This document shows positions 2,160-30,355 of a stretch of 41,032 bases of DNA, piece by piece; position 1 is the stretch's first letter; each line of letters begins with the position of its first letter. The stretch is from an uncultured Clostridia bacterium (GTDB lineage: Bacteria; Bacillota; Clostridia; TANB77; CAG-508). Made by a program: the position numbers and the translations under genes. The stretch is from contig CANQWL010000001.1 in assembly GCA_947627555.1 (NCBI GenBank), positions 1 through 41,032 of the forward strand. Reading direction: 5' to 3'. The notes beneath the pieces are model-generated. The model ran no database searches, was not told where the DNA came from, and was given only the letters and a program-made list of their open reading frames with translations.

Positions 2160-3392
2160 TTATTGAATTTCTCTTTGATTATTTTCCTTGTTGTTTTCTT
2201 CCTTTTCTTGATTTTTTCCTTTACCTGTAGAATCTTTCTTTAATAATTTTATATCACTATAACTTAAATGCCTTGTCTTGTCACACATATCTTCTAGATG
2301 CTCTTTTGCTTTTATTTCTTTAGATTGTAGTTTTGTTTCTAATGTTCCTTCTAAATTAAATGGAATCGATATTTTTACCATAATCGGTATAAAAATTGGA
2401 TCTTTTTTTACTCTTTCTACGATTTTTTTACTATTAATATCTATTGCTGTATTTATATATCTAATTGCTGTATCTTTGTCCATTTTTATTAAAGAAATTT
2501 TTGCAAGTTCATAATAAGCATCTGCCGATAGTTCATCATCTTGAATTACTTCTAAAAATCTTTTTTCTGCTTCTTCTAATTCTTTATAAATTAAAGCAAT
2601 TTGCGCTAAAGAATATTTAGAATTATAAGAAAGTGAATTAATTTCTGATGCTTTTTCATAAGCTTCCTTTGCACTTTGAAAGTCATTTAACATTGTATAT
2701 ACTATTCCTAAATTATAGTATAAATCAAAATTTACAGGATTGTATTTTATAGCATTTTGGTATATATTTGCTGCATCTTTATATTTTTCTTTTTCAATTA
2801 AAATGCTTCCTAATAATTCTGATGCCTCACACATATCAGGTTTCTTATTTAATAAATTAAATAACATTTCAGAGGCTTCGTCTTTCTTATCTAATGCACT
2901 TAATAGCTCTGATACTTTATAATAAGAATCATAATCCTTTTTATTTAAGTCAATTGCCTGTACATACTCATCAATTGCTTTTCTCATTCCACCTTCTTGT
3001 TCATAAATTTGTGCAAGCATTAAATGTGCTTTGTAACTATTTTGATTTTTATCTAATACCTTTATTAATAATTGTTTTGTTTTTTTAGTATCTCCAAATA
3101 TCACACTTATTCTAGCTTTTGAAATATTTACTAATTCAAATAATGAGACATATCTCTTTTCTAAAATTACCACAATAATTGGTAGTAATATTGAAAAAAT
3201 ATATTTTAATATTACAAATACTATGTTTAGTTTTAGTCCAAATAATACTTCTACAAAATTTAATGCTATTCCAACTGCTTCTAAAACTAATATTATTACA
3301 TAAGTTGTATCATTGTTTTTTATCATTCTAAAAAACATATATACAAATAGAGCAAATGCTATAACTGTAAATATTAATTGTTCTATTACCAT
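2160..3392 (-). CDS. membrane-anchored TPR-repeat protein
   Basis: 410 aa. The N-terminal ~90 aa contain three hydrophobic helices, followed by repeated 34-aa-like A..Y...A...(D/N)P.. units (AHLMLAQIYEQEG.., YYNLGIVYTML..AKEAYEKA). The C-terminus is Lys/Glu/Asn-rich. Confidence 0.6.
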   Translation of the reverse strand: MVIEQLIFTVIAFALFVYMFFRMIKNNDTTYVIILVLEAVGIALNFVEVLFGLKLNIVFVILKYIFSILLPIIVVILEKRYVSLFELVNISKARISVIFGDTKKTKQLLIKVLDKNQNSYKAHLMLAQIYEQEGGMRKAIDEYVQAIDLNKKDYDSYYKVSELLSALDKKDEASEMLFNLLNKKPDMCEASELLGSILIEKEKYKDAANIYQNAIKYNPVNFDLYYNLGIVYTMLNDFQSAKEAYEKASEINSLSYNSKYSLAQIALIYKELEEAEKRFLEVIQDDELSADAYYELAKISLIKMDKDTAIRYINTAIDINSKKIVERVKKDPIFIPIMVKISIPFNLEGTLETKLQSKEIKAKEHLEDMCDKTRHLSYSDIKLLKKDSTGKGKNQEKEENNKENNQREIQ

Positions 3393-3573
3393 TTTGCTTA
3401 CTCCTCTTTTTTCGTTATTTTATTTTGTTATATTGTATTGTATTTTTTTTAATTTGTCTAGTATCTATTATAAAAGTTGCGACATACAAAGTTATGAAAA
3501 ATATAATTATAAAGCTTAATAAAAAATTAGCATTTCTAATTTATTAGCAAACATAAATCAATATAGTAAAAAT

Positions 3574-4137
3574 TTAAAATTTATATATTTCTTGATAAAT
3601 CTTATAATCTCTCAAAATTTTTCTAACATAATTATTAGTTTCTTTATACGGAATATTTTCAATATTTGATCCATCTCTTTTGATAATTCCCTTTTCTATC
3701 CATTTATCAATTGTACCTATTCCAGCATTATATGCTGCCAATGCAACTTCCGTATTTTCATATCTCTCTAATAAAATAGATAAATATTTTGTTCCAATTC
3801 GAATATTGTTTTCTGCCTTTAATAATTCTTCTTTTACATTGTCTTGATTTATTTCTATTATATCTCCTTTTGCTATATCTTTTGCTGTATCTTCCATAAT
3901 TTGCATTAGTCCAATTGCATTTTTATTAGAAATTGCTTGTTTATTAAAATTACTTTCTGATTTTATTAATGCAAATATTAAATTTTCATCAACGCCATAC
4001 TCTTCCGAATATATAGATATAATTTCTTGATACGTTTTTGGATAAATTATCTTTAGTATTTTATTTTTGAATACTCCTAGAAAAACAAATATTATTAAAA
4101 TTATTGTTATAAAAATAATTAGTTTTTTGTTTTTCAA
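3574..4137 (-). CDS. lytic transglycosylase (SLT domain), membrane anchored
   Basis: 187 aa with an N-terminal TM segment, the catalytic ESNFN..AIS..NAIGLMQI motif and AAYNAGIGT. The start codon is TTG, preceded by AAGGAAGAG. Confidence 0.8.
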   Translation of the reverse strand: MKNKKLIIFITIILIIFVFLGVFKNKILKIIYPKTYQEIISIYSEEYGVDENLIFALIKSESNFNKQAISNKNAIGLMQIMEDTAKDIAKGDIIEINQDNVKEELLKAENNIRIGTKYLSILLERYENTEVALAAYNAGIGTIDKWIEKGIIKRDGSNIENIPYKETNNYVRKILRDYKIYQEIYKF

Positions 4138-4154
4138 CTTTTTCTCTTCCTTTC

Positions 4155-6855
4155 TTATTTACACTCATACCAATTATTTGCTTCTGATATTTCTGCAATT
4201 AGTGGTACTTTTAAGTCAGCTGCTGTTTCCATAGATGTTTTTAAAATTTCTTTTATTTCATTAATTTCTTTTTGTGGCACTTCAATCATCATCTCATCAT
4301 GAACTTGTAACACAATTTTTGATTCTAGTTTTCGTTTTTTTATTTCTTGATATACTTTTATCATTGCTATTTTCATAATATCTGCTGCTGTGCCTTGTAT
4401 TGGAGTATTCATTGCAGCTCTTGAGCCAAATTGTCTTACCATATAATTATTAGATTTCAATTCTGGAATATATCTTCTTCTGTGAAATAAGGTCTCTACA
4501 TATCCTTTTTCTTTTGCTTCTTCTGTGATATTATTCATAAAGTTTTTTATGCCCTCATATTGTTCTAAATATTCATCAATGTATTTCTTTGCTTGTTTTC
4601 TAGATATTCCTAATTGCTCTCCTAATCCAAAATCACTAATACCATAAACAATTCCAAAATTAACTGCTTTTGCATTACTTCTTTGTTCTTTTGTTACTTG
4701 GTCAATTGGTGTTTTAAATACTTTTGATGCTGCTTGTTTATGGATATCTTGACCTTCTTTAAATGCTTCTATCATATGTTTGTCTTCTGAAATTGCTGCT
4801 AATACTCTTAATTCTATTTGTGAATAATCAGCATCTATATAAACTTTTCCTTCCTCTGGCTTAAATGCCTTTCTTACTCTTTTTCCTAATTCAAATCTTG
4901 TAGGTATATTTTGTAGATTTGGCTCTGTTGAACTAATTCTTCCTGTCGCTGTTATTGTTTGATGAAAGAAGGAATGAATTCTTTTTGTTTTTGGATTTAT
5001 ATATGGTTTTAAACCTTCTACATAAGTGGAATTTAATTTGGCTAATTGTCTATATTCTAAAATTTGTTCTATTATTGGGTCTTCTTTTCTTAATTTTTCT
5101 AAAACATCTACATCTGTTGAATATCCATTTTTTGTTTTCTTTATTACTGGTAATTTCATTTTTTCAAATAAAATTTCTCCTAGTTGTTTTGTAGAATTAA
5201 TATTAAATTCTTCTCCTGCCATTTCATAAATTATTTTAGTTATAGTTTCTATCTTTTCTGTTAATTCTTTTCCAAATTCATTTAGTTCTACTTCATCTAA
5301 ATACATTCCATTCCACTGCATATCTGATAAAATTTCAATTGTTGGTATATCAATATTATAAAATAGGTCTAAACTATTTACTTTTTCTAATTCTTTTAAT
5401 GTAATTTTTCTTATTTCAGAAATTGCATAACTATATAATGCATATTTCTCTTTTTCTTGCTTTCTGTCCGTCTCTTCTGATATTGCATCAAATAAATTAA
5501 TTTGCTGTGATTCTTCTTCCTTAATATATTCTTCTATATTTATTTCTAAATATTGTTCAATTAAATTTTCTATTTTTAATTTATTATTTGTAGGATTTAA
5601 AATATAAGCAGCTATTGCTATATCATAATTTATTCCTTTTAACTGAATTCCTTCCTGTTTTAATAATATATATACTTTTGTTAAGTCAATACCTATTTTT
5701 TTAATACTTTCGTCTTCTAGTATTTCTTTTAGTTCTATAATATTATTATTTTTTAAGTCCAAATAATAAGCTTCTTTTTGTTCCTCATTATATATACTTA
5801 TTCCTATTATCTTTTCTTTAATAATGTTTTCTTCTTTATCTTGTTTAATTGTTGCAATTGAAAAAATCATTTGTTTTTGCTCTTTAATTAATTGTATGAT
5901 TTCTTCCTTACTTTTATCTGCATTTTTAAAAGTTTCTTTTATATCTTTTTCCACAGTTTCTGCATTATCTGTTAATGAAAATCTTTCAATATATCTTTTA
6001 AAATTTAACTCTTTAAAAATTTCTAATACTTTTTGCTTGTCCCATTCTTCTACTTTGAAATTTTCTAATGTGTCTGTTATTGGCACTTCTAAATTAATTG
6101 TTCCTAAAGTTTTTGACATAAATGCTAAATCTTTATTTTCTACAATTTTTTCTCTTTGTTTTCCTTTTAATCCATCTTCTTCTTTTTCAATTGCTTGATA
6201 AAGATTTTCTATTGAGCCAAATTTTTGAATAAGTGATAAAGCTGTTTTTTCTCCTACTCCTGGCACACCTGGGATGTTATCAGAGGTATCTCCTTGTAAT
6301 CCTTTTACATCTATTAATTGTTTTGGTTCTAGTCCATATTTTTCTATAATCTTTTCCCTATTAAATTCATCTGTTTCTGTTTTTCCTGATTTTGTATGAG
6401 GAATTCTAATTGTTACTTTATCTGTTGCAAGTTGAAATGTATCTCTATCTCCTGAAAGAATTGTAACTTCTAATCCTTGTTTTTCTCCATATCTAGATAA
6501 GGTACCGAAGCACATCATCTGCTTCGTACCCCTCCATTTCTACAATATCAATATTCATTGCTGATAATATTTCTTTTATTATTGGCATTTGTTCTGCTAA
6601 TTCATCTGGCATTCCTTTTCTATTTGCTTTATATCCTTCATACATTTTGTGCCTTGCAGTTGGCGCTTTTAAGTCAAATGCTACTACAAGATATTGAGGT
6701 TCTATATCTTCTAATATTTTAAACAAAATTGCTAAAAATCCATAAATAGCATTTGTATATTTTCCATCTTTTGTTGTTAACATTCTATTTCCCATAATTC
6801 CATAGAATGCTCTATTCATAATACTATTACCATCAACTAATACTAATTTATCCAA
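4155..6855 (-). pseudogene. polA: DNA polymerase I, reading frame broken by one extra base (or an assembly error)
   Basis: ORF 6493-6855 encodes the start of the 5' nuclease (..EGYEADDV). ORF 4155-6518 continues with GTLSRYGE..SGDRD and the polymerase motifs DADYSQIELR, RSNAKAVNFGIVYG and QVHDE. The two frames are offset by 1 and the span of 2701 nt equals 3n+1. Removing one G near 6507 restores ..EADDVLGTLS... Confidence 0.85.
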
Positions 6856-24578: not shown

Positions 24579-25241
24579 TTAATTTTTTTCTTCTTCTATC
24601 TTTTTTATTTCTAGATTTTTTTCAAATTTATTTGTAATTCCTAGTAATGTTAATATATATACTATTAACATCATTGGAATTGTTAATCTTCCTATTGGTA
24701 ATCTAGTTATTGCAATTATACTAAATAATAATGCTTCTGCTACGGCTAATATTAATATTGTTTTTACTATTACTTTTATAGAATTTAATTTATAATATCT
24801 TATTGCCATGTATAATAATATGATTGCTGTTGCAATTATAAATGATACTATATAAGGTTTTATTATGTCTCTTCCTCTCATATGTGCAATTGATGTTATT
24901 TCTATTTCTTCTGCTGATAATTCTGTTTGATATTTTTCATTTATTTTAGTAATTAAATTATTTTTTTGTTCTTCAGTAATATCATTTGAAATAATACTTA
25001 CTGTATCTTCAAATACTTCTACTTTTTGTATTAGTACTTCTTGATTTTGTATAACTTCATTTGTTATTTGCTTTATATCAGAAATTTCAAATTCTTTTCC
25101 TATATATAATTCTACTTTTTTTGATGGCTGATATGCTAATTCGAAATTAAATCCTGATGTTGCTACAACAATAATTCCCGCTATTATAATAATTGCTATC
25201 AATAAAACGATTATTTTCATTTTGTTATTCTTTTTCTCCAT
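24579..25241 (-). CDS. SecF-like membrane protein (short, divergent)
   Basis: 220 aa with an N-terminal TM, a ~100 aa external domain and three TM helices. The layout and the GFNFEL.. start resemble SecF, but the last helices and conserved polar residues are missing. Confidence 0.45.
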   Translation of the reverse strand: MEKKNNKMKIIVLLIAIIIIAGIIVVATSGFNFELAYQPSKKVELYIGKEFEISDIKQITNEVIQNQEVLIQKVEVFEDTVSIISNDITEEQKNNLITKINEKYQTELSAEEIEITSIAHMRGRDIIKPYIVSFIIATAIILLYMAIRYYKLNSIKVIVKTILILAVAEALLFSIIAITRLPIGRLTIPMMLIVYILTLLGITNKFEKNLEIKKIEEEKN

Positions 25242-25252
25242 GATATTACCTC

Positions 25253-26791
25253 CTATTTCTTTTCTGCCTTTATTTTTAGTATTGTTCCAACTATTACAAA
25301 ATTGTAAATTGCTATTAATGCAATTCCCCAGAACATCATCATTCCGAAGCTGCTTAAAGGAGTTAAATTCATAAAACAGAAGGCAATAATAGCGATTATT
25401 ATTGGAATTATTTTAATAAAGAATTCTTTATATGCTGTTTTTACTGCTTCTTTTACAACTATGTCTTTGTTATTTTCTTCTTTTTCTTTATTTATTCCAT
25501 TTAATATTTTATTCATAAATATATATTCAAGAATTAGTATTACACCAATTGCAAATAATCCCTCTAATGATATTTCTACATTTGTATATCTTATTAGTAA
25601 TGAATATATAGCAAATAATCCTATATATAAAATAGCACCAATTATTCCATTTGTCTTATATCTAATGCAAAGTATTATTAATGCAACGGCAATTATCGCA
25701 ATTGCTACATATCCTATTATTTGAATATTATCTTCTGTAATATCTGTTGAAATATATTCATTTTCGGCTATATCGTATTTAATAGGAATATTTCCTGAAT
25801 CTAAAACTGTTGCCATACTTAATGCTTGGTCAACATATCCATTTAGTGTCTCTTTATCTGTTGATGCTTGTCCTATTGATAATTGTAATTGTCCTGTCCT
25901 TAATGGTTCATCAAAGCTTGTTGTCATTATTTCTTGGTCATCTACCTTCATTGTTATTTCTTTTTCTGTTGTTGTATCTTCTTCCGTATCTGTACTTTCT
26001 GTTTCTGTATTTTCTGTATCTGTTGCATCTTCTTCCGTATCCGTGCTTTCTGTTTCTATATCTTCTGTATCTGTTGTTTCTTCTTCTGTAGATGTTTCTT
26101 CTGATGTAGTATTAGAGTCACTTGTTTCTTCTGTTTCCACATATTTATTACTAATATCTTCTAATTTTTTAGCTCCATCTTTATTAAATTCTATATTTAA
26201 ATATACATTAGTTCCTGCATTAGCTGCAGTCGTAGAACTAGATCCATACATTACACTTGATGATTTTATATCATCATTTGTCATTAATACTTCTTTTGTC
26301 TCACTATCTATTATCTCAAATTTACCAGTTGTACTTAAATTGCTTACAACTTTATCTGTATTATCATTTTCAGTAAACTCTATTATAATGTCTCCTGTTT
26401 GCTCATCTAATCTTATATTGTAATCATCTACATTTAATTTTTTTAGTCTTTTTTCAATTATTTCCTTTGACTTTTTATAGTTATCTAATGTTAATATTTC
26501 TTGTGGATTATTTTGAACTTCTTCTTTACTATATCCTTTTTCTGCTATTTGTTCATCTGTTAATTCTTCAGTTTCTTCTATTTCTGCTCCATTTTCATCT
26601 TTGATAACTGTTGTTGATTCTTCATTTACTTTTAATTTTACTTGTCTAGCTCCTTTTAAATTCATAGTATAAGAATAGTCTTTTACCTTATTCTCCATTC
26701 TATTTTGTACTTGACTATAAATTCCTAAAAAAGCAATCATTGAAACTAAAACAACTGCTAAAATCGTTGTTAATATTTTAACTTTTTTCAT
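25253..26791 (-). CDS. SecD-like membrane protein with an acidic Thr/Glu/Asp-rich insertion
   Basis: 512 aa with a signal-anchor and a P1-like head (TGKFEIIDSETKEVL.., NVYLNIEFNKDGAKK). A ~70 aa T/E/D low-complexity tract follows, then a 5-TM region that parallels SecD without its conserved GMAVDANV-type residues. Confidence 0.5.
   Translation of the reverse strand: MKKVKILTTILAVVLVSMIAFLGIYSQVQNRMENKVKDYSYTMNLKGARQVKLKVNEESTTVIKDENGAEIEETEELTDEQIAEKGYSKEEVQNNPQEILTLDNYKKSKEIIEKRLKKLNVDDYNIRLDEQTGDIIIEFTENDNTDKVVSNLSTTGKFEIIDSETKEVLMTNDDIKSSSVMYGSSSTTAANAGTNVYLNIEFNKDGAKKLEDISNKYVETEETSDSNTTSEETSTEEETTDTEDIETESTDTEEDATDTENTETESTDTEEDTTTEKEITMKVDDQEIMTTSFDEPLRTGQLQLSIGQASTDKETLNGYVDQALSMATVLDSGNIPIKYDIAENEYISTDITEDNIQIIGYVAIAIIAVALIILCIRYKTNGIIGAILYIGLFAIYSLLIRYTNVEISLEGLFAIGVILILEYIFMNKILNGINKEKEENNKDIVVKEAVKTAYKEFFIKIIPIIIAIIAFCFMNLTPLSSFGMMMFWGIALIAIYNFVIVGTILKIKAEKK
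25976..26077. repeat. 2 x 51-bp tandem repeat inside the SecD-like gene
   Basis: Units 25976-26026 and 26027-26077 differ at only a few bases and encode the 17-aa unit ETESTDTEED(A/T)TDTE(N/D)(T/I). Confidence 0.85.
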
Positions 26792-26929: not shown

Positions 26930-28249
26930 TTATTTCATATTATAAGTTCCTACATCTTTATTCCAAGAATTAATCAAGTACTGTTTTTCTGTCTTCGGAA
27001 TCAAAGCCATTCTAAATGCAGACATTGGTCTATTATATCTATACATAGTTTCTTGTCCATCAGATACTGCACTCTGCCATCCATGATTATTTACTAATAT
27101 TTGATAAACAATAGAATAATAGGATGTATCTTTTAATTTCATTTTTATTCCTGCAATTCCAAAAGAATAAGTTCCTTCATATTGTTTTGGAATTGGATTT
27201 TTACCATTAGCATCTGTTTTATCTTTTGCATTAATTCCGCTTCCACCAAACATAAAGCAATTCTTATTTTGAATATTTACCATTGTTCCAGATGCCATTG
27301 ATGCATAAGTCGTTCTACTTGGATTATATCCATATAAATATTTAGTATGATATGTATCACAAGTTGCCATACTTCCTTCTCCCCAATAAGAATAAACAAA
27401 AGCTTGTGCTTGTATAAAATCTTTATCTATATTTCCATCAACATGAAATGCTAATGCTTCTGTTTTTAAAATTGGATTTTGTTTTACGGCAGTTTTTCCT
27501 GCTACATCATAATTTCCATATCCGAATGTCCAACCTATTTCTGAATTATGAGATCCATACACAATATTAATATTTGTTGCTTTTGTAATATTAATTTCTA
27601 TTTTGGTTTTATTTTGAGCTAAATCCATTATTTCAAAAGTATAAGACACATTATTTGTAAATTCTTTTGTTAAAACTAATTTACTTTCGGAAATATTCCA
27701 TCCTTCCATTTTTCTAATTGCTTCATTTGAAGTAATAGTAGCAGTTACTTTTCCTTGTGCACTTTCCTTTTCCAAAAATGTTAAATTAGGAGCAATATTA
27801 TCAATTTGTACATCAGTATCAAAAATTGTTTCTTCATTGATATTATCTGATTTATCTTTTATTGTCCCTTCTTTTACAACAATTTTCAACTTTCCATTAC
27901 CCGTTAGTTTGCTTAATTTTATTTGATATATAATTGATTCACTATTTTTTTCTATTTCTTTTATCTCATAAATTTCTGGATTAACTTCTTTTTCTTGAAT
28001 TAGTATTTTTATTTTTTCTTTTCCAAAATTATTTTCTATTATATTTTTTTCTGTTACTTTTATTTTTGCAGTTATGGTATGTGTCTGATTAGCATATTTT
28101 TCGTAACCTGTATTTGTATTTTCTAAACTTATCAATTCTATTTTAGGTGGATTTCTGTCAATATCAATATTAGCAATATTGTAAGTAGCATCAAATATAT
28201 ATTTTGCATATATATTTATGTTTATACATATTATGGCTAAAAATATCAT
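26930..28249 (-). CDS. large secreted protein with Ig-like repeats and a ChW-like C-terminal region
   Basis: 439 aa with a hydrophobic N-terminus and beta-rich repeats. The C-terminus has GW segments (HNSEIGWTFGYG.., NNHGWQSAVSDGQ) that resemble clostridial ChW repeats. The frame stays open upstream to 28291 (IEKIRKNKKIYVFI) without a canonical start. Confidence 0.6.
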   Translation of the reverse strand: MIFLAIICININIYAKYIFDATYNIANIDIDRNPPKIELISLENTNTGYEKYANQTHTITAKIKVTEKNIIENNFGKEKIKILIQEKEVNPEIYEIKEIEKNSESIIYQIKLSKLTGNGKLKIVVKEGTIKDKSDNINEETIFDTDVQIDNIAPNLTFLEKESAQGKVTATITSNEAIRKMEGWNISESKLVLTKEFTNNVSYTFEIMDLAQNKTKIEINITKATNINIVYGSHNSEIGWTFGYGNYDVAGKTAVKQNPILKTEALAFHVDGNIDKDFIQAQAFVYSYWGEGSMATCDTYHTKYLYGYNPSRTTYASMASGTMVNIQNKNCFMFGGSGINAKDKTDANGKNPIPKQYEGTYSFGIAGIKMKLKDTSYYSIVYQILVNNHGWQSAVSDGQETMYRYNRPMSAFRMALIPKTEKQYLINSWNKDVGTYNMK

Positions 28250-28305
28250 GATAAAAACATATATTTTCTTATTTTTCCTTATTTTTTCTATCTAAATCCC
28301 TCCTT

Positions 28306-28905
28306 TCATATTTCTCTTCCAATTGCATTAATATGAAAACGATAATCTTTTAACGTTGTTCCATCTTTTGTATCTTGAATATCTTGTCCTATATCTGTTT
28401 CGTAATTCCAAATCCATTGAATTATAATTTTCTTACGCTCATTTTTATTAACATTTCCTTGCAATTCTTCTGCTAATTCTTCTATTCTTTGATATTTTTG
28501 ATTTTTTCCTTTAATTGAAAAAGTTAAATTTTGAGGTTTTATATTTTGACTAATAAATTCTATTTGATAATTGATATCTTTATTTGCTTGTAAAATTAGT
28601 TCAAATTCACCTTCTGTTCCTGGTGCAATTTTTTCATTTATTAACTTTTTTTGATCTATTGTTTCTAATAATGAAATATTTGTTGAAATTTCATTTTTAT
28701 TTGAAAAGTCAAAATAATATTTATAAATTTGGTTTTCATTATCATTTGTATTTATCTGATTTTGTTTACTTTGTGAAAATAATTTGAAAAAAATAAAGTC
28801 TTCTGCAAAATCTTTTTTCTGAATTTTATATAATATAAGAAATAATATAAGAAGAATAAAAAAGATTATTAAAATCAACATCTTTATTTTTGTTTTCTTT
28901 TTCAT
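28306..28905 (-). CDS. TasA/camelysin-like secreted beta-sandwich protein, paralogue 2
   Basis: 199 aa with a signal-anchor. It shares KIAPGT(E/S)G(E/K)F(E/D).I, INYQ(I/V).F, NL.FS and IQW.W.YET motifs with ORF 29535-30125. GGAGG RBS. Confidence 0.45.
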   Translation of the reverse strand: MKKKTKIKMLILIIFFILLILFLILYKIQKKDFAEDFIFFKLFSQSKQNQINTNDNENQIYKYYFDFSNKNEISTNISLLETIDQKKLINEKIAPGTEGEFELILQANKDINYQIEFISQNIKPQNLTFSIKGKNQKYQRIEELAEELQGNVNKNERKKIIIQWIWNYETDIGQDIQDTKDGTTLKDYRFHINAIGREI

Positions 28906-28915
28906 TGTACCTCCT

Positions 28916-29422
28916 TTACCCTTTTGCCTGTTCAGAATGTACTTTAATTTCTATTTTTTGCATAATATCTTCTATTGAGGTTGATTTTTCTTTATCATAT
29001 TTTATTTGTATTTTGTATTCATCTTGTTGCATTTCTTGCTTTTTTAATGTAAACTCTTCTGTTTGGTTATTTTCTATTGAAATTTCTTTATTGTTTTTTA
29101 ATAGTTTAATTGAAATTGCATCATCTTCTTTGTTTAATATTTGTACATAATATTTCATATCAACTTGTGTAATTTCTCCTACTTCATTGTAATTTTTTAC
29201 ATAGAAAGTATAATTTCCCTCTTTTTGCTTTGATGTTATATTAATTTCTGGATTATTTTCTACAACTAAAATTGGTTTTGCAACTGCTCCATTTGATTTT
29301 ATTTGCGTACTACTAATAGCTTTTCCTATACTACATCCTGAAAAAAATAATATCATTACCATTATTGTTATACATATTAAAGTTATCTCTCTTTTTTTAT
29401 TTTGAATTAATTTTATTTTCAT
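28916..29422 (-). CDS. lipoprotein (beta-rich)
   Basis: The start at 29422 gives MKIKLIQNKKREITLICITIMVMILFFSGC with an FSGC lipobox. The longer ORF-track start would run through an upstream hairpin. Confidence 0.6.
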   Translation of the reverse strand: MKIKLIQNKKREITLICITIMVMILFFSGCSIGKAISSTQIKSNGAVAKPILVVENNPEINITSKQKEGNYTFYVKNYNEVGEITQVDMKYYVQILNKEDDAISIKLLKNNKEISIENNQTEEFTLKKQEMQQDEYKIQIKYDKEKSTSIEDIMQKIEIKVHSEQAKG

Positions 29423-29447
29423 AGCATCCTTCTTTCCTTTTAAAATA

Positions 29448-29472
29448 GGAAAGAGTTTCACAATCTCTTTCC
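29448..29472 (-). terminator. intra-operon hairpin (possible attenuator) after the first TasA-like gene
   Basis: GGAAAGAG (29448-29455) pairs with CTCTTTCC (29465-29472). On the minus strand it is followed by UAUUUUAAAA. Confidence 0.35.
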
Positions 29473-29534
29473 CTTGTATTTTATTTTCTATCATTCAATA
29501 AAATTAATAGATTATGAAATGAATCTAAAATTGT

Positions 29535-30125
29535 TTAATTAGGTGCAACTTGTGTTCCTGATACAATAATGTCGAATTCATAATTTGAAATATTTTTTGC
29601 ATCTTGTGTATCAATCTTATCATTTGCTGTGATTTCTTCTGGTGTACTTCCTGTTTGATATTTCCAATTCCATTGAATTGGAAATACTTTTCTTTTTTCT
29701 TGTTCGTTACTATTAATTGTTCCTGATAGCACTTGTGTTAATTGAGTAATAGAATTATATTCTGTGCCATTATAACTAAATTTTAAATTAGTCGGTTTAT
29801 TTTTTTCATTTCTGAAATCAACTTGATAGTTTATTCCAACATCTGAACCTGTAGCATCTATAATAATATCAAATTTCCCACTTGTTCCTGGGGCTATTTT
29901 ATTATTTACAAGTGTCTGGTTATTACTAGTAGATTGTAAGTTTATTGTTTGTACTTGTTCTTCTTGTCCATTAACATTAAATTGCCATGTAGCAACTTGT
30001 GCAATTCCTTCTCCTTTCACTCTTGCAACATATTTTGAATATACTTGTCCTCCTATAAAGGATGATAAAATTCCTAATAAAATTGCTAATGCAATAATAA
30101 TTTTCTTTTTTTTGGTCAAAAGCAT
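29535..30125 (-). CDS. TasA/camelysin-like secreted beta-sandwich protein, paralogue 1
   Basis: 196 aa. The signal peptide ends ..FIGGQVYSKY, reminiscent of the SipW-class GG..Y.F cleavage region. It has KIAPGTSGKFDIIIDATGSDVGINYQV and IQWNWKYQ motifs. A TTG at 30119 is better spaced from GGAGGA than the ATG at 30125. Confidence 0.5.
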   Translation of the reverse strand: MLLTKKKKIIIALAILLGILSSFIGGQVYSKYVARVKGEGIAQVATWQFNVNGQEEQVQTINLQSTSNNQTLVNNKIAPGTSGKFDIIIDATGSDVGINYQVDFRNEKNKPTNLKFSYNGTEYNSITQLTQVLSGTINSNEQEKRKVFPIQWNWKYQTGSTPEEITANDKIDTQDAKNISNYEFDIIVSGTQVAPN

Positions 30126-30266
30126 TCCTCCTTTAATTTGTTATTTAATTTTTTTTGATTTTTTTACGATTTGTTAAGAAATAAATTGAAATTAATTTTT
30201 CTAAACAATAAAAAAATGAATTTAAAATAAATTTTATTAAATGATAAAAATTTAAAATATGTTTAA

Positions 30267-30295
30267 ATTATAATGTCAAAAAAAAGAATTGTCAA
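30267..30295 (-). promoter_or_regulatory. consensus sigma-A promoter TTGACA-N17-TATAAT for the TasA-like operon
   Basis: Minus-strand reading: TTGACA (30295-30290), 17-nt spacer, TATAAT (30272-30267). This leaves a leader of about 135 nt before the start codon. Confidence 0.6.
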
Positions 30296-30355
30296 TTGTC
30301 TTTTCTTAGAAAATATAACTTTTCATCGCAACTTTCGACAATAACAATTCTTTTT

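Follow-up and report, generated by a model that had tools for sequence, protein, structure and literature searches.

A four-gene operon of an uncultured Clostridia bacterium encodes putative, remotely TasA/BsaA-like fibre subunits

On the minus strand of a 41,032-nucleotide stretch of DNA from an uncultured Clostridia bacterium (GenBank assembly GCA_947627555.1, contig CANQWL010000001.1, positions 1 to 41,032; henceforth referred to as ‘the window’) lies an operon of four genes, which an initial annotation had read as a possibly new variant, lacking a SipW-type peptidase, of the TasA-type extracellular fibre systems. Experimental evidence for TasA-type donor-strand fibres comes from Bacillus, Clostridium perfringens and a few archaea. 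Here we describe the operon and its relatives in gut Clostridia, its remote relationship to TasA and the distribution of genes for SipW-type signal peptidases, and we weigh the proposal that its products form a fibre at the cell surface or in the matrix. The genome to which the window belongs is a 1.29-Mb metagenome-assembled genome (MAG) that is 81% complete; all genomes to which it was compared are likewise MAGs, and the absences reported below are provisional.

Results

A four-gene operon behind a consensus promoter

The open reading frame (ORF) listing of the window contains, as initially described, four co-oriented and tightly packed minus-strand ORFs spanning positions 26930-30125. In the order of transcription these are gene 1 (P1; 29535-30125, 194-196 aa), which encodes the putative major subunit; gene 2 (28916-29422, 168 aa), previously taken for a lipoprotein gene; gene 3 (P2; 28306-28905, 199 aa), a paralogue of gene 1; and gene 4 (26930-28291), whose product has 439 aa if translation starts at the ATG at 28249 and 453 aa if it starts at a probable ATA at 28291. 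The intergenic gaps measure 112 nt (genes 1 and 2), 10 nt (genes 2 and 3) and about 14-56 nt (genes 3 and 4), and a strong Shine-Dalgarno sequence precedes each of the four genes. The operon is headed, on the same strand, by a consensus sigma-70-type promoter, TTGACA-N17-TATAAT, at 30267-30295, the hexamers of which (read from 30295 to 30267) are the sole 12/12 match in a 7-kb scan.

We compared the operon with 80 related loci, found with a 12-sequence alignment, from gut MAGs of uncultured Clostridia that include Clostridium sp. CAG:575; the ORFs of these loci were searched with the proteins of the window and with the SipW-type enzymes of its own genome. Gene 1 is present in all 80 loci, and orthologues of genes 2, 3 and 4 were found in 76, 57 and 63 of them, respectively. 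In front of the gene 1 orthologue, 61 of 79 loci have the perfect hexamers at a 17-nt distance, with spacers that vary in sequence. Many relatives (L034, L042, L045, L063, L067 and others) carry within this spacer a palindrome, TTCCA-N5-TGGAA, that could serve as a repressor operator; the spacer of the window (ATTCTTTTTTTTGACAT) lacks it. Rfam returned no match at E≤1 for the operon or the ~140-nt leader, and thus no riboswitch was found.

The gap between genes 1 and 2 had been reported to hold a hairpin (29448-29472, minus strand). This structure can indeed be drawn, with an 8-bp stem, a 9-nt loop and a UAUUUU tail, but it is weak: the minimum-energy fold favours other pairings, one of which involves the gene 2 ribosome-binding site, and the z-score of the region in RNA folding is only -2.1. 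A terminator scan returned nothing on the minus strand, this hairpin included, and the hairpin is not kept beyond the closest relatives, being absent as a conserved element in L028, L031 and L033. Given the competing folds, the low z-score, the empty terminator scan and the poor conservation, a role as a robust attenuator or terminator is unsupported. Relatives that have sipW inside the operon carry that gene at the very place where the window has the hairpin.

Gene 1, a paralogue of gene 3, represents a large uncharacterised family

The product of gene 1 consists of a lysine-rich n-region, a hydrophobic helix, the sequence GGQVYS/KY (the slash marks the predicted cut) as a putative SipW-type cleavage motif, a strand AQVATWQF and a beta-rich domain with the motif KIAPGT. 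Translation had been taken to start at the ATG at 30125; the TTG at 30119 is more likely to be the start, for it sits six bases after GGAGG while the ATG abuts the ribosome site, and a database cluster with 99% identity to gene 1 (P0001) has 194 aa, the length expected from the TTG start. The AlphaFold2 model of the gene 1 protein, a structure prediction having been among the checks initially proposed, has a mean predicted local distance difference test (pLDDT) score of 90.7 and shows a membrane helix at the N-terminus with a beta-rich domain after it; the N-terminal strand segment is less confident in this monomer model (pLDDT 62-79). That genes 1 and 3 are paralogues was borne out: they share 35% identity over 153 residues (BLASTP, E 2e-25), all three of the motifs noted originally (KIAPGT.G.F, INYQ..F and IQW.W.Y) lie within this alignment, and the profiles of the two families match with 100% probability in hhalign.

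Neither genes 1-4 nor 71 members of the gene 1 family gave a significant match in Pfam or NCBIfam. The family is nevertheless large, with 913 relatives, almost all unnamed, in a protein collection clustered at 90%, and with 1625 representatives at E≤1e-3 (550 at E≤1e-10) in a library clustered at 50%. Its members are common in gut Clostridia with small genomes, from human, rabbit, mouse, chicken and ruminant hosts, and the cassette was found in 21 of the 24 genomes of the genus that were searched. The consensus of an alignment of 71 sequences (A1) runs from a lysine-rich n-region and a hydrophobic helix through G.T.AKY, G.G.A.VAKW.F and GKIAPGT.G.F.I to a C-terminal TGTQ. Besides the APG motif, the most conserved block of this alignment is the strand A45/W47/F49 (A45-W47-F49-V51), and [AS]K[YF] occurs in 78 of 82 gene 1 orthologues. 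Some proteins of 400 to 3136 aa are headed by a signal and domain of the gene 1 type, for example P0247 (3136 aa) and P0239 (841 aa); among the large proteins of this kind, one has Listeria-Bacteroides (Flg_new) repeats and another has GLUG motifs.

The gene 3 protein lacks the [AS]KY cleavage-type motif, which was found in just 6 of 56 gene 3 orthologues, and a conserved amphipathic segment follows its membrane helix. These features would fit a putative subunit that is retained in the membrane uncleaved. In three divergent relatives the gene 3 paralogue has 277-317 aa (L094 11523-12488, L095 11534-12376 and L099 11488-12393), with ~90-100 aa added at the N-terminus, before the hydrophobic stretch.

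Genes 1 and 3 are remotely related to TasA and Peptidase_M73

We compared the gene 1 family (A1) in hhalign with a profile made from 24 Peptidase_M73 proteins, which were collected from 301 sampled genomes of the phylum. The two match with 96.0% probability (E 4.1e-9) over 161 columns, end to end, in a register that places GG.T.AKY on GGATFA.F, KIAPGT on N.APGD and TGTQ on the C-terminal A.Q. When the signal peptides are removed, the probability is 57.6% (E 1e-4) and the register is unchanged. As controls, reversed profiles did not reach 0.5%, and families of membrane or signal-anchor proteins that are unrelated but come from the same loci reached at most 21% over at most 30 columns. The fold comparison, with its low TM-scores, is not decisive by itself: the top match of the gene 1 model among PDB structures in Foldseek is the TasA fibre (8aur_A; E 4.2e-4, probability 0.99, template modelling (TM) score 0.32/0.29), which is also the sole PDB match with E<1e-3; the list further contains TasA crystal forms (5of1 and 5of2) and an archaeal bundling pilin (7ueg).

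A third comparison comes from within the same genome, where a gene adjoining that of a SipW-type peptidase on contig C24 encodes a secreted protein of 164 aa that has a classical VKPGD...N.GN motif. This protein matches the gene 1 family with 96.4% probability over 141 columns and the PGD core of M73 with 93.3% (hhalign). The order of elements, a GG-x-T-x-[AS] signal, a strand and an APG motif, is common to both families; the resemblance of GG-x-[TVA]-[YF]-[SA]-K-Y to the GG-[AT]-x-A-x-F of M73 is one seen by eye and in the hhalign register only. Overall, four indirect lines (profile, fold, motif order and linkage to sipW) suggest that genes 1 and 3 belong, remotely, to the TasA/BsaA superfamily. 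The initial description of the two as TasA/camelysin-like thus holds at the level of remote homology and not at that of a direct hidden Markov model match.

SipW-type peptidase genes inside and outside the operon

The operon encodes no signal peptidase, as had been stated, and a genome-wide search for SipW-type peptidases gave matches on other contigs only, none in the window. A search for sipW homologues elsewhere in the genome had been suggested, and two were found: contigs C73 and C24 each encode a protein that exceeds the cut-off of TIGR02228 (archaeal/SipW-type). The C73 enzyme is a standalone protein of 196 aa without an obvious local substrate. The C24 enzyme, of 368 aa, joins a polytopic membrane domain to a SipW-type peptidase and lies in a second SipW-linked cassette (L003 414-3168) together with the 164-aa TasA-like protein described above and a 342-aa DUF5305 protein. 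One LepB-type Peptidase_S26 gene is located on contig C10 (131 bits). Across the genus, a SipW-type gene was detected in 33 of 41 genomes.

In part of the relatives the operon itself carries the missing gene. Directly between genes 1 and 2, 23 of the 77 related loci that could be assessed have an ORF of about 120-160 aa; these in-operon ORFs carry SGSMEP/SDSM-type, THRI and KGDNN motifs, and the four that were tested against NCBIfam scored 80-88 bits with TIGR02228 (cut-off 51.85). An in-operon sipW is found in most of the more divergent loci (35-50% identity). On a tree of gene 1, sipW-positive loci are found to either side of the midpoint root and within clades that adjoin that of the window, the six members of which are all sipW-negative. 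The distribution of sipW on this tree takes at least seven changes, and well-supported branches force at least three to four. The simplest reading is that sipW was ancestrally part of the operon and has been lost repeatedly, a direction that we infer with the root placed at the midpoint. The missing sipW of the window is then a recent, lineage-specific rearrangement and not a new SipW-independent mechanism, and the own genome still holds two enzymes of the type.

We also looked at two candidates for traces of such a loss. A sipW remnant between genes 1 and 2 was rejected, the gap being just 112 nt long and aligning with that of sipW-less relatives. Likewise, the in-operon sipW of G014, another genome of the genus, which seemed to contain a TAG and to be a decaying intermediate, is an intact ORF of 139 aa, with the stop lying beyond its end. 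At L066, a region just upstream of the main cassette (3378-6282) encodes a SipW, a gene 1-like protein, a gene 3-like protein, a second SipW and a gene 2-like protein, and the two peptidases are the nearest relatives of the orphan C73 enzyme (E 2e-39 and 3e-38).

Genes 2 and 4 share the signal and strand class of gene 1

Gene 2 starts with an ATG behind a GAAGGA ribosome site, its longest ORF extending to 29494. Because of hhalign matches of its family to the gene 1 family (97.2%, E 3e-11) and to M73 (71.6%, E 3.5e-5, over the full length including the C-terminal SEQ), gene 2 is, by sequence comparison, a third and shorter TasA-like paralogue, contrary to the view that the accessory genes are foreign to the TasA scheme. 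Its product is a lipoprotein candidate at most within its own small clade: in the window the signal does carry an FSGC lipobox, but the lipobox cysteine is present in only 4 of 52 gene 2 orthologues with the motif, and those four form the clade of the window. At this position, orthologues have tyrosine (21), valine (14), isoleucine (6), phenylalanine (4) or cysteine (4), and many sipW-negative relatives have tyrosine, valine or phenylalanine. The usual motif is FFSG[YV]S.[GA]K (more generally SG[YVIF]S.[GA]K) followed by a strand IAKPIL.VE, which parallels the motif and strand of gene 1. As for the lipoprotein pathway, LspA was found in the own genome and Lgt was not, in an assembly that is 81% complete. 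Gene 2 may have become a lipoprotein gene only in the small clade to which the window belongs.

The product of gene 4 has a signal ending in IYA/KY, a strand NIANIDID, two Ig-like domains and a C-terminal, beta-rich and weakly ChW-like domain. Rather than at the ATG at 28249, as annotated initially, the gene probably starts at a non-canonical ATA (28291-28289), which lies 6-7 nt after AAAGGAGGG and adds a lysine-rich n-region (IEKIRKNKKIYVFI). Immediately before the ATA there is a stop in frame (TAG or TAA); the ATA is conserved in L026-L029, and L029 has no ATG, GTG or TTG across the signal-peptide region of gene 4. In 36 of 49 gene 4 orthologues the signal ends in [YFL][AS]KY and is followed by a strand such as IANIDID, and the N-terminus matches that of gene 1 with 67-80% probability in hhalign. 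In the AlphaFold2 model (mean pLDDT 89.4), residues 1-29 are unstructured and score below 50, and the body comprises the two Ig-like domains and the beta-rich C-terminal domain. Foldseek with this model returned generic tandem-Ig matches only, none of them informative on the C-terminal domain. The Ig-like part of the earlier description is thus reproduced, while its ChW-like part stays below threshold: ChW (PF07538) gave 10.2 bits (E 0.69) against a cut-off of 22 for gene 4, and was also sub-threshold in 5 of 16 orthologues (E 0.0048-0.1).

The N-terminal module of signal and strand is, in sum, common to genes 1, 2 and 4 and not shared by gene 3. This corrects an annotation trap, in that the ‘lipoprotein’ and the large ‘Ig protein’ have the same class of signal and strand as the subunits.

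Discussion

The closest described system is the sipW-bsaA-bsaB-bsaC operon of C. perfringens, with the tapA-sipW-tasA operon of Bacillus subtilis behind it. In C. perfringens, SipW is required for the export and polymerisation of BsaA (PMC7395162; Obana et al. 2020), and donor-strand exchange has been proposed for BsaA from multimer models backed by mutants, the oligomers being membrane-anchored (PMC11580942). The BsaA/TasA family comprises 2172 proteins, only 632 of which are in the camelysin InterPro family (PMC11580942; Kivimaki et al. 2025), and often has several paralogues per operon, beside signal peptidase and sortase genes (PMC11580942). Like bsa, the present operon is clostridial and is remote from TasA in sequence, and the scheme common to both has two ~20-kDa TasA-like paralogues (one a major polymer former, the other minor, as proposed here), a large accessory secreted protein, a SipW-type peptidase (in the operons of relatives) and fibres that are, or here would be, anchored in the membrane and not by LPXTG. 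It differs from bsa in several respects: sipW comes first in bsa, whereas the operon of the window lacks it and relatives have it between genes 1 and 2; the TasA-like paralogues number three instead of two; the large protein is Ig-like and weakly ChW-like instead of having a vWA domain; the operon contains no two-component regulator; no N-E-K isopeptide triad is conserved at the family level; and the signal motif ends in [AS]-K-Y.

In B. subtilis, SipW frees the TasA N-terminus for donation to the next subunit (TasA fibre 8AUR, PMC9674648), and strand complementation has been described for TapA (PMC10151520). The likeness to tapA-sipW-tasA lies in the TasA fibre being the best structural match, in the profile-level homology to Peptidase_M73, in the position of the peptidase gene between structural genes (in relatives of the window) and in an accessory protein, gene 4 here and TapA there, with a donor-type N-terminal strand on a different body. 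The differences are that there is no direct Peptidase_M73 match, that TM-scores to TasA are 0.29-0.37, that an extra membrane-anchored paralogue is predicted here and that the peptidase is encoded in trans. A third system, the TasA-like donor-strand fibre AbpA of Pyrobaculum calidifontis (7UEG, PMC9245690), ranks 21 in the Foldseek list (7ueg_A), although the match is very weak (E 0.1) and the protein is archaeal, from another operon context. We regard the cassette as an unmodelled subfamily of the BsaA/TasA kind, of which the [AS]-K-Y ending, the three TasA-like paralogues and the Ig/ChW donor-type subunit are distinctive.

Taking these observations together, we put at roughly 70% the probability that the four genes specify a fibre, at the cell surface or in the matrix, that belongs to a divergent subfamily of the TasA/BsaA (SipW-cognate) superfamily and has its peptidase supplied in trans. 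In this scheme gene 1, transcribed from the perfect consensus promoter, would provide the major (shaft) subunit. Following Sec export, a SipW-type (Sec11-like Ser/His) peptidase would cut it at about VYS/KY, and the freed N-terminus (the A.VA.W.F strand) would insert into the beta-sandwich of the next subunit by donor-strand exchange, as in TasA and BsaA. The gene 3 protein, without a cleavage motif, would remain in the membrane as the base, and the products of genes 2 and 4 would be minor subunits (adaptor, nucleator or cap) comparable to TapA or BsaB/BsaC. Gene 4 could act like TapA because its donor-type strand is not accompanied by a TasA-like acceptor domain, which would make it a nucleator, a cap or a wall binder. 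The lineage would have lost its in-operon peptidase and would rely on one of the two SipW-type enzymes encoded on C73 and C24.

A number of results weigh against this proposal. The Peptidase_M73 (PF12389) search that had been suggested as a check gave no match at E≤1, and so none above the gathering threshold, for genes 1-4, and a genome-wide scan with the same model returned only a 14-bit sub-threshold match on another contig. A profile search of PDB sequences with the gene 1 family gave no match at E≤10. The SipW-cognate signal model TIGR04088 matches one of the 71 family members (E 0.0058) and not the protein of the window. The hhalign probability for the mature domain is modest (57.6%), and the TM-scores to TasA reach only 0.29-0.37, partly because the membrane helix is part of the gene 1 model. 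The columns of the 71-sequence alignment that are conserved at ≥90% include neither K nor E, so that an N-E-K isopeptide triad is not evident; N113, the sole N conserved at that level, lies outside the N-terminal strand. Two of the 21 cassette-bearing genomes of the genus, G016 (81% complete) and G017, gave no SipW-type match. Finally, polymerisation of the gene 1 protein is purely inferred, the structural models being those of monomers.

The remoteness of the similarity to TasA also leaves room for a TasA-like fold that makes no fibres at all, the products acting at the surface as monomers or dimers, for instance as adhesins, as binding proteins or in association with the wall. The gene 3 protein and a lipidated gene 2 product would then hold them at the membrane, for which the plausible lipobox of gene 2 and the presence of LspA would be suited, and the gene 1 protein would be an abundant secreted or surface protein like BsaB, a TasA-like paralogue that forms dimers only and does not polymerise (PMC11580942). 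The very large surface proteins headed by a domain of the gene 1 type also show that this domain can be an N-terminal adhesin module. We nonetheless consider this explanation unlikely. The N-terminal strand (A45/W47/F49), which is outranked in conservation by the APG motif alone, and the recurrence of the strand module, poorly packed in the monomer models, in three proteins of the operon both speak against it, and a perfect promoter suits a bulk structural product. Moreover, relatives have a dedicated SipW-type peptidase linked to the cassette, and such linkage is so far known for polymerising substrates (PMC7395162, PMC9674648).

A different question is whether the operon of the window still depends on SipW. 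The LepB-type enzyme of C10 might have taken over genes 1 and 4 and the lipoprotein pathway gene 2, with both SipW-type enzymes serving only their own neighbouring substrates. The C24 enzyme does sit in a cassette of its own, alongside a DUF5305 protein and the 164-aa protein as its cognate substrate, the gene 2 lipobox cysteine was seen, among the loci examined, only in the clade of the window, which has no in-operon sipW, and the two genomes of the genus just mentioned have the cassette and no detectable SipW-type gene. We judge such a takeover to be very improbable. Genes 1 and 4 keep the full GG-x-V-Y-S-K-Y and IYAKY sequences as sipW-positive relatives do, gene 2 has tyrosine, valine or phenylalanine instead of cysteine in many relatives that are equally sipW-negative, and the orphan C73 peptidase is left without an obvious local substrate; since the genomes are incomplete, a missing SipW is weak evidence.

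The fibre with a peptidase in trans, which we prefer, can be taken a step further, to a heteropolymer made of an uncleaved base, a short adaptor, a shaft and a donor-only Ig/ChW cap or wall binder, with the loss of sipW coupled to the Tyr-to-Cys change in gene 2. Such a division of labour is unknown from any TasA-type system; the change to cysteine would re-route the adaptor to the lipoprotein pathway, and the orphan SipW would process the shaft subunit in trans. This more elaborate version is speculative, and we think it improbable in its entirety.

The locus described here adds a large family that curated models do not cover. If its members do form fibres, these are likely to be a major structure on the surface or in the matrix of abundant uncultured commensals, and operons with and without sipW offer a natural series in which to study the substrate specificity of SipW and the anchoring of fibres.

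Other genes of the window bear on the surroundings of the cassette. Between 31661 and 38830, just upstream of birA, lie several type IV pilin-like genes (weak N_methyl matches), a sortase gene and a gene for a cohesin-domain protein. The secretion of BsaC in C. perfringens is pilin-dependent, and because of this analogy the pilin-like genes and the sortase (31.6-38.8 kb) were weighed as partners of the cassette, yet they are not syntenic in relatives and we claim no link. Downstream of the cassette, at 24579-26791 on the minus strand, are genes for two membrane proteins of 512 and 220 aa with a SecD/SecF-like topology and no Pfam match at E≤0.01; this pair accompanies the cassette in 21-22 of the 80 related loci, all of them closer relatives.

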